A stretch of DNA of 10,419 nt from Escherichia coli (lineage in GTDB: Bacteria; Pseudomonadota; Gammaproteobacteria; Enterobacterales; Enterobacteriaceae), in assembly GCF_003334385.1 (NCBI RefSeq), contig NZ_QOWN01000068.1; one strand, 5' to 3'. The notes beneath the pieces were generated by a model. That model was given only the letters and a program-made list of their open reading frames with translations, ran no database searches and was not told the DNA's origin. Shown here in pieces: positions 9,768-10,102 of this stretch. A program made the translations under genes and the position numbers. How positions within the stretch are numbered: the first letter of the stretch is position 1; every line of letters begins with the position of its first letter.

Positions 9768-10102
9768 TTCACCCTCCTGAGGGTTGGTAATTAAGGAGTT
9801 CTCCACGGGTCAGGTGGAGTGCGTGCGCCGGACACGGGTGAGCATCCGGCACTGACAGCTTACTGAAAGGATATGTCCCTGAAAAGTCAGGGCATAACGC
9901 GAAAGCGCACGGCGAAATTGGTCTCTCTGTACGGTGTCGTTAAATTTAGTTCGACCGTGCGCTTCCGGTTGTGGCACTCCGCGAAATGGCGCGGCGGTAA
10001 GTATGGCTGGGGTTTCCTCCATTGCTCCAGAAAATGCACCGGGTTGTCAGGTTGACCATACGCTTAAGTGACAACCCCGCTACAACGCCCTCTGTTATCA
10101 AT

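Follow-up and report, generated by a model that had tools for sequence, protein, structure and literature searches.

DicF is among the oldest known bacterial small RNAs (sRNAs). In phage lambda, the PL leader contains a long hairpin that is cleaved by RNase III, and the cut regulates translation of N. The RNA element described below occupies the slot that is taken by nutL and N in lambda and by put in HK022. DicF itself occurs as a 53-nt form, whose 5' end is generated by RNase E and requires that enzyme, and as a 190-nt form with an RNase III-cut 5' end, the latter being abundant in stationary phase and accumulating upon RNase E inactivation; no internal promoter was found ahead of DicF (bioRxiv 10.1101/2023.04.14.536235). 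With these data, Ragunathan et al. (2023) confirm the account of DicF processing given by Faubladier et al. (1990), and processing of the precursor through RNase III as well as RNase E, mentioned in the initial annotation of this DNA, is thus established in published K-12 work (bioRxiv 10.1101/2023.04.14.536235). The leader preceding DicF is described in the literature only as a "long untranslated region", and the 190-nt RNA as a processing intermediate. In the searchable literature, which does not cover older papers on put-like elements, dicF or P1, no function was found described for the 340-nt leader, and no conserved fold, covariation or occurrence outside dicF loci is described; neither the core sequence of the element nor the DicF precursor as a structure was found in searchable full text. 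While the processing biology of DicF is already known, what is new here is a covariation-supported fold, without an Rfam match, that makes up most of the DicF precursor and is common to the ban leader of phage P1.

The window analyzed here, a 10,419-nt stretch of an Escherichia coli contig (NZ_QOWN01000068.1), lies in a Qin-like lambdoid prophage. According to the RefSeq annotation of a strain 99.6% identical to the window, the gene order is YdaT, YdaS, a DicA-like repressor, ydfA, ydfB, ydfC, two hypothetical genes, an unannotated gap, dicB, ydfD, an exonuclease and an excisionase. Alignment revealed that window positions 9786–10102 are homologous to the entire ydfC–dicF untranslated spacer of E. 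coli K-12 (locus L171, 1765–2082). In the early-left (dicB) operon of the prophage, this region forms the untranslated leader ahead of DicF, and a scan of 9800–10102 found no promoter. The ydfC–dicF leader divides into three parts, namely a spacer, a long hairpin and a four-helix RNA (Table 1), and this account of the identity and structure of the region upstream of DicF can be given with high confidence. Compared with K-12, the window carries two extra open reading frames (ORFs) between ydfC and the spacer, at 9128–9529 (+) and 9489–9767 (−). These are convergent and overlapping, encode proteins of 133 aa (phrog_1363) and 92 aa (phrog_18692) of unknown function, and gave no PADLOC match. At three further loci (L024, L078 and L114), other minus-strand genes occupy the position between ydfC and the leader, which therefore looks like a gene-insertion hotspot.

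Table 1. Features of the DicF leader and of DicF, in window coordinates.
Feature	Position	Strand	Description	Basis
Lineage-specific spacer	9800–9897	+	small hairpins at 9801–9819, 9827–9850 and 9877–9892	homology to K-12 spacer directly after ydfC
Long irregular hairpin	9893–9967	+	arms ~9899–9916 and ~9951–9967; perfect 10-bp core 9903–9912/9955–9964	inverted repeat, folds
Four-helix-junction RNA	9968–10086	+	conserved, ~120 nt, with loop-loop pseudoknot	covariation, RNAalifold, covariance model
Helix P1	9968–9975/10079–10086	+	8 bp	
Helix P2	9979–9983/9990–9994	+	5 bp	
Helix P2a	9996–9998/10038–10040	+	3 bp	
Helix P3	10007–10012/10025–10030	+	variable hairpin	
Helix P4	10041–10049/10069–10077	+	9 bp; the 9-bp repeat of the initial annotation	
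Pseudoknot	10001–10006/10056–10061	+	6 bp; internal loop GUAUGG to CCAUAC of the 19-nt P4 loop	
Small hairpin	10093–10114	+	UGUUAUCA/UGGUGACA	minimum free energy (MFE) folds
DicF sRNA and terminator	10103–10160	+	53-nt sRNA 10103–10155; terminator hairpin 10118–10155; U-run 10156–10160	Rfam, K-12 annotation, terminator fold

The description of this region as highly structured is borne out by folding z-scores of −2.78 (9800–10160) and −1.89 (9800–10102), and the three inverted repeats on which it had been based are all present (9827–9832/9845–9850, 9877–9882/9887–9892 and the two strands of helix P4). With nested repeats included, the region has nine perfect inverted repeats of 6 bp or longer, whereas 1000 dinucleotide shuffles average 3.0 ± 2.1 and 1.5% of them reach nine. 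Only 3.2% of the shuffles contain an inverted repeat of 9 bp or more, of which the region holds two independent examples; single 6-bp hairpins, at about three per shuffle, are no more than chance predicts. The strongest hairpin of the region, in which 10 perfect base pairs sit within a ~70-nt stem-loop, was absent from the initial list. Comparison across homologous loci separates the three listed hairpins. Only five of the 22 distinct Qin-type sequences keep all 6 bp of the hairpin at 9877–9892, with no compensation; most of the 22 read CCCTGA/TCAGAC, that is, 4 bp with two uncompensated mismatches. The hairpin at 9827–9850 is nearly invariant, shows no covariation and has a terminal mismatch in K-12. 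In other lineages, unrelated sequence replaces the 9800–9892 module and is joined at the same point, as in L044, L054, L056, L113 and L119, where a different upstream module ends at the same CACAAC junction. The spacer is probably not a functional RNA structure. The 9-bp repeat, on the other hand, keeps its pairing and is one helix (P4) of a conserved four-helix RNA, so that comparative support exists for only one of the hairpins first listed.

The fold of this four-helix RNA was examined in an alignment of 19 sequences, each less than 95.5% identical to the others. Standard pairs are formed in 95.5% of the alignment cells, compared with 28–55% in slid controls, and eight pairs have changed on both sides, compared with 2.0 ± 1.1 in shuffles, none of 500 reaching eight. 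Five of the compensatory pairs fall in P4 and three in P1. No compensatory change was found in P2 or the pseudoknot in the 19-sequence alignment; variation in P2 consists of wobbles and a few broken pairs only, and the pseudoknot is invariant except for a single U-A to U-G change in Salmonella phage F1055. In addition, RNAalifold independently recovers P1–P4 and adds P2a, with a U-A to C-G change in phage P7, and the P3 hairpin forms with at least 4 bp in 28 of 31 distinct variants. The folding signal is specific to the strand: the element has a z-score of −2.15 on the plus strand and +0.67 on the minus strand, and G-U pairs are found on the plus strand only. A covariance model (R1) of the element scores 127 bits in the window. 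Across copies, the element measures 119 to 128 nt. The unpaired nucleotides of the 19-nt P4 loop and of the internal loop show little or no variation, in contrast to P3, the P3–P4 junction and the flanks, which have diverged; this pattern points to selection on more than the stems.

Directly upstream, the long hairpin folds in eight of eight lambdoid lineage variants tested despite differing arm sequences (Qin, CGCGAAAGCGCACGG/CCGUGCGCUUCCG; phage cdtI, CGAUGAGGGCA/UGCUCUCAGCG; L044, AGCACACUA/UAGUGCGCU), and its pairing has therefore been conserved through compensatory change. Between the window and K-12, it differs in the apical loop only. Its base is lengthened by CAYAAC:GUUGUG pairing, and the stem amounts to ~20–25 bp with the basal CAUAAC:GUUGUG included, or the length of about two helical turns that RNase III needs. 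Measured 190 nt upstream from the annotated 3' end of DicF in K-12, the cut comes to lie at L171 1945/1946, equivalent to window 9961/9962, a position obtained by length counting and not from primary gel data. This cut falls inside the 3' arm of the long hairpin (CCGUGCG^CUUCCGG) and leaves six unpaired nucleotides ahead of P1; the species of 190 nt in K-12 measures 194 nt in this window (~9962–10155). From the published work together with this mapping, the long hairpin is likely the RNase III substrate that gives the 190-nt species its 5' end. The proposal that the listed stems act as processing determinants is therefore supported in principle, as an RNase III end lies in a stem, although that stem was not among the three named; the 9-bp repeat is helix P4 and not an RNase III site. 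Since the RNase III-cut end lies at ~9962 and the fold spans 9968–10086, the 190-nt species consists of the element plus DicF, and this suggests that the precursor is for the most part a discrete RNA fold under selection and not spacer. The suggestion that the region might encode an additional small RNA holds only to the extent that this known species comprises the four-helix domain in addition to DicF.

The basal CAUAAC of the long hairpin (9893–9898) can pair with GUUGUG (9968–9973) in competition with helix P1. Three strands thus compete, as GUUGUGG (9968–9974) has two possible partners, CAUAAC upstream and GCUACAAC (10079–10086) downstream, and both options are kept in all lambdoid lineages. 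Because of this two-way pairing, RNase III cleavage could trigger refolding of the four-helix element.

At the 3' end of the leader, the Rfam DicF family (RF00039, a covariance model of 52 positions) matches 10104–10155 with 77 bits against a gathering score of 48, and the model covers no part of 9800–10102. The DicF 5' end was taken from the K-12 annotation (L171 2083, window 10103). This end (10102/10103) lies in the A/U-rich loop (10101–10106) of a small hairpin whose stem pairs the DicF 5' seed (Table 1). Downstream of the element, a hairpin and U-run are present in 59 of 59 distinct sequences, corresponding to roughly ten sequence variants. Most of these terminators are DicF relatives co-inherited with the element, and the terminator of phage P1 is unrelated to DicF; the constant position before a terminator therefore amounts to about two independent observations, one lambdoid and one from P1. 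A GGCGGUA similarity exists between the element and DicF-type terminator arms and is absent in P1.

The element extends well beyond dicF loci. BLAST searches against phages found a ~125-nt core (window ~9966–10090) kept at ~80% in otherwise unrelated contexts, including cdtI, 2H10, Stx2c phages, F1055, an Actinobacillus phage, P1, P7, SJ46 and RCS47, and further variants were collected by pattern scans of IMG/VR and 100,044 species genomes. The exact-pattern scan of the latter gave true matches only in Enterobacterales; matches on metagenome-assembled contigs labelled Collinsella and Lachnospiraceae look like contamination, and more degenerate patterns would drown in chance matches. Among 5426 complete E. 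coli genomes, 4417 (81%) carry the element, with 9462 copies in total and 505 on plasmids, and it is unannotated in all five of the matches listed from these genomes. Furthermore, it is found in 61 phage records, compared with 22 for DicF. It is a mobile cassette of Qin-like and cdtI-like lambdoid phages and of the P1/P7 ban leader, and in the copies examined it always lies in the sense orientation of a repressor-controlled early operon and is followed by an intrinsic terminator.

The element and terminators of the DicF type are inherited together, as a cassette, across lambdoid lineages. In cdtI and Stx2c phages, the cI stop and the cI terminator are followed in turn by PL, a ~290-nt leader, the long hairpin, the element, a DicF-type terminator and the early-left genes. 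PL is near-consensus there (TTGACA-16-CATAAT, 11/12), the ~290-nt leader has, by annotation only, no plus-strand gene, and no N-type gene was found in this early-left context. In Qin-type prophages and in Tritos, a functional phage, the DicF terminator separates PL from dicB-exo-xis-int; the annotation has no N gene there, and downstream there is no other convincing plus-strand terminator. In P1 and P7, the C1 operator and P1ban promoter are followed, after ~25 nt, by the element, a strong terminator (8 bp, UUCG loop, six Ts), tRNAs, tci genes and ban. The P1/P7 copy lacks the DicF seed and the RNase III hairpin, and its loops are almost unchanged. Only ~10–12 nt separate element and terminator in cdtI and P1. 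In the window and in cdtI (L003), the element is present as a single copy, in the leftward operon only.

Several individual copies deserve mention. The P1 record (NC_005856, 68791–68892; L175 1553–1654) labels a "dicF-like region" that holds no DicF sRNA. What the label covers is an unrelated terminator together with the element's 3' half, and the start of the element lies ~65 nt further upstream; the label implies that the sequence similarity had been noticed before. The copy in Actinobacillus phage vB_Apl-pPE4 (L005, 2484–2606), a phage of a different bacterial family, is near-identical to the E. coli variant L145 from P2 onward, and unrelated sequence replaces the 5' strands of P1 and P2, which suggests that the copy is truncated or that a recombination breakpoint lies within the element. 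In phage cdtI (L003, 2260–2430), the leader from PL to the long hairpin has short stretches similar to motifs of the element (GGCGUAUGGC, GGUUUGACGCCUGGG), which may reflect a degenerate second copy or mere coincidence; no element match was found there with the covariance model.

Comparison with known RNA families gave no assignment for the leader. Rfam 15 families produced no match in 9800–10102, either at the gathering threshold or at E values up to 10, and an equally permissive scan of 9500–10419 returned DicF, STnc100 downstream of DicF and two chance matches elsewhere. A tRNA or tmRNA was ruled out, with nothing found by ARAGORN in 9700–10419 and no conserved CCA after helix P1. A classical riboswitch was likewise rejected, given the absence of an Rfam match and the formation of the terminator alongside the element in MFE folds; by eye, no conserved riboswitch-type alternative pairing of the helix P1 3' strand with the terminator is common to lambdoid phages and phage P1. 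For HK022 put, sequences of putL and putR were taken from the HK022 genome and the structure from Hwang et al. (2022; PMC9378689). Homology was rejected, as motif searches of the HK022 immunity region found no element core motifs, and the element covariance model, run on HK022 with filters off, gave no match at putL or putR at E values up to 10. The element shares the 9-mer GCGCGGCGG with put, and a CCAUNCG-like motif was also noticed by eye; with a chance expectation of ~0.03 and different structural contexts, these were treated as coincidence.

Two other RNA loci were observed in the window. The STnc100 match lies in the dicF–dicB intergenic region (10167–10316, +) and is sub-threshold, at 33.6 bits against a gathering score of 47 (E = 2e-5); this intergenic region is kept in all Qin-type loci seen, as exemplified by AAAGTGAATTTTGTGATG...GGTTAACGTCACCTGGAGGCACCAGGCAC directly before dicB. 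A hok/sok-type toxin-antitoxin locus is found at 2894–3219 (−), where the Rfam match to the sok antitoxin RNA (3044–3219, 120.5 bits) overlaps a 70-aa ORF (2894–3106).

Regarding function, it is tentatively proposed that the element controls, in cis, read-through at the terminator directly downstream, in early-left operons in which no N-type gene was detected. The nascent folded domain would act on RNA polymerase or on the terminator just behind it, functionally like the HK022 put RNA or a leader aptamer. A fraction of transcripts would then read through into dicB-exo-xis-int, or into the tRNAs, tci genes and ban in P1, and the terminated fraction would give a ~170–190-nt RNA from which RNase E releases DicF. 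Consistent with this proposal are the covariation, the independent RNAalifold prediction, the strand asymmetry with G-U pairs on the plus strand only and the conserved loops. In addition, genes needed after induction sit beyond the terminator in carrier phages in which no N gene was found, the element is more widespread than DicF, and a terminator is always behind it. The mechanism is read from position and is offered as tentative, and several observations weigh against it, namely that there are about two independent contexts, that each phage has one copy and that put gave no match. By eye, no conserved antiterminator pairing with the terminator arms was seen. In lambdoid phages, the upstream hairpin can first capture the 5' strand of helix P1, and full folding before the terminator is therefore not guaranteed. 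The full-length read-through transcript was not detected on Northern blots (bioRxiv 10.1101/2023.04.14.536235), and the terminator may simply be leaky. In its broader form, the proposal would place the element in a new class of leader RNAs in phages, acting in cis on transcription elongation or termination as either a constitutive antiterminator or a signal-sensing aptamer, and supplying antitermination in the large group of lambdoid prophages without a detected N-type gene (Qin/DicA-YdaS-YdaT and cdtI/Stx2c) and in the P1 ban operon; this wider claim is possible, if doubtful.

Alternatively, the fold could serve the biogenesis and stability of the sRNA precursor, although this is rather unlikely. 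The element would be a compact 5' body that stabilizes the RNase III product and stages cleavage by RNase III and then by RNase E. It would offer RNase E a short single-stranded 5'-monophosphate end and, together with the small hairpin at 10093–10114, keep the DicF seed masked until RNase E cuts the loop. Such a role agrees with the abundance of the 190-nt species in stationary phase and its accumulation without active RNase E (bioRxiv 10.1101/2023.04.14.536235), with the six unpaired nucleotides that the inferred RNase III cut leaves before P1, with the pairing of the DicF seed in the precursor fold and with the co-inheritance of element and DicF-type terminators. It is weakened because the P1/P7 copy keeps the same loops with neither DicF seed nor RNase III hairpin. 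Moreover, the ~10–12-nt gap between element and terminator in cdtI and P1 leaves little room for a seed, a passive stabilizer does not need invariant unpaired nucleotides, and the element is present in more phage records than DicF.

It is also unlikely that the released ~170–190-nt RNA acts in trans through its conserved fold, by binding or sequestering a host protein (for example RNA polymerase, an RNase, or a defence or chaperone protein) or by sensing a small molecule. Every context yields a discrete RNA, bounded at the 5' side by RNase III cleavage or a start site close by and at the 3' side by the terminator, and this RNA would appear early after loss of the repressor in both P1 and lambdoid phages. 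The invariant loops and the aptamer-like four-way junction with its tertiary loop-loop contact would also suit such a function. However, no partner is known, no riboswitch or protein-binding RNA family matches, and a trans-acting RNA does not require strict early-operon placement directly before a terminator.

The reading in the initial annotation, that the region holds nothing beyond the hairpins at 9827–9850, 9877–9892 and 10041–10077 and that these serve as processing determinants for RNase III or RNase E, is very improbable. Although processing of the transcript by both enzymes is established (bioRxiv 10.1101/2023.04.14.536235), the mapped RNase III end lies in a different hairpin, two of the three hairpins lack conserved pairing, and the third belongs, as a single helix, to a larger conserved fold that occurs in P1 as well, in the absence of both DicF and the upstream hairpin.

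Protein coding on either strand was rejected on the basis of frame-breaking length changes and the substitution pattern, in line with the early judgement that the stretch lacks a convincing ORF: ORFs on both strands are broken by length changes of the variable hairpin that are not multiples of three (element lengths of 119 to 128 nt), and substitutions cluster in loops or as compensatory pairs, with no three-base periodicity visible by eye. In K-12, a TTG-initiated 111-aa ORF runs antisense across the entire ydfC–dicF spacer (L171 1746–2081, −); a 4-nt length difference in P3 splits it in the window, and hence the ORF most likely exists as a side effect of the conservation of the RNA sequence. 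Despite this ORF and the hypothetical proteins annotated here in some phage records, a small protein is hardly conceivable, as neither K-12 nor PGAP annotates a gene at this place.

Altogether, these readings differ in their consequences. If the element controls read-through, this would explain how dicB, exo, xis and int are expressed past the DicF terminator without a detected N-type gene, and would provide a second class of RNA-only antiterminator beside put. Should the element prove to be a precursor domain or to act in trans, the understanding of DicF biogenesis and of the P1 "dicF-like region" would still change. Either way, the fold is a reasonable candidate for an Rfam family.

Among described systems, riboswitch aptamers such as SAM-I resemble the element in that a P1 helix closes a junction of several helices, a peripheral hairpin is variable and a terminator follows closely; SAM-I-type aptamers further share the four-way junction, invariant junction and loop nucleotides and a tertiary pseudoknot. 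Unlike riboswitches, the element precedes generic phage early genes, and no ligand suggests itself. The lambda N leader and the DicF leader are both PL leaders with long RNase III hairpins; the lambda cut regulates N translation, whereas the cut in the DicF leader defines the 5' end of a non-coding RNA.

With regard to HK022, putL and putR (PMC9378689) are, like the element, promoter-proximal, cis-encoded and structured RNAs of early operons without an N-type antiterminator, and both put and the element lie upstream of terminators and have highly conserved unpaired nucleotides. Their distances from the promoter are also similar, with putR ~270 nt from PR (PMC9378689) and the element ~290 nt from PL in cdtI. 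In architecture they differ, put being a ~70-nt RNA of two stem-loops and a triplex (PMC9378689), and the element a ~120-nt RNA of four helices and a pseudoknot. HK022 has both putL and putR, whereas the element occurs once per phage and not in the rightward operon; put is an RNA antiterminator that works in cis with no phage protein and is inactivated by mutations of the RNA polymerase beta' zinc-binding domain, and the element is a candidate for antitermination by position only. In the P1 record, the "dicF-like region" in the ban leader, a similarity label only, covers the 3' half of the element and the terminator, and the element plus DicF is the same RNA, from the same locus, as the 190-nt species known from the dicBF operon of E. 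coli K-12. The P1 segment is without the DicF sRNA, and what P1 and the DicF loci share is the upstream fold.
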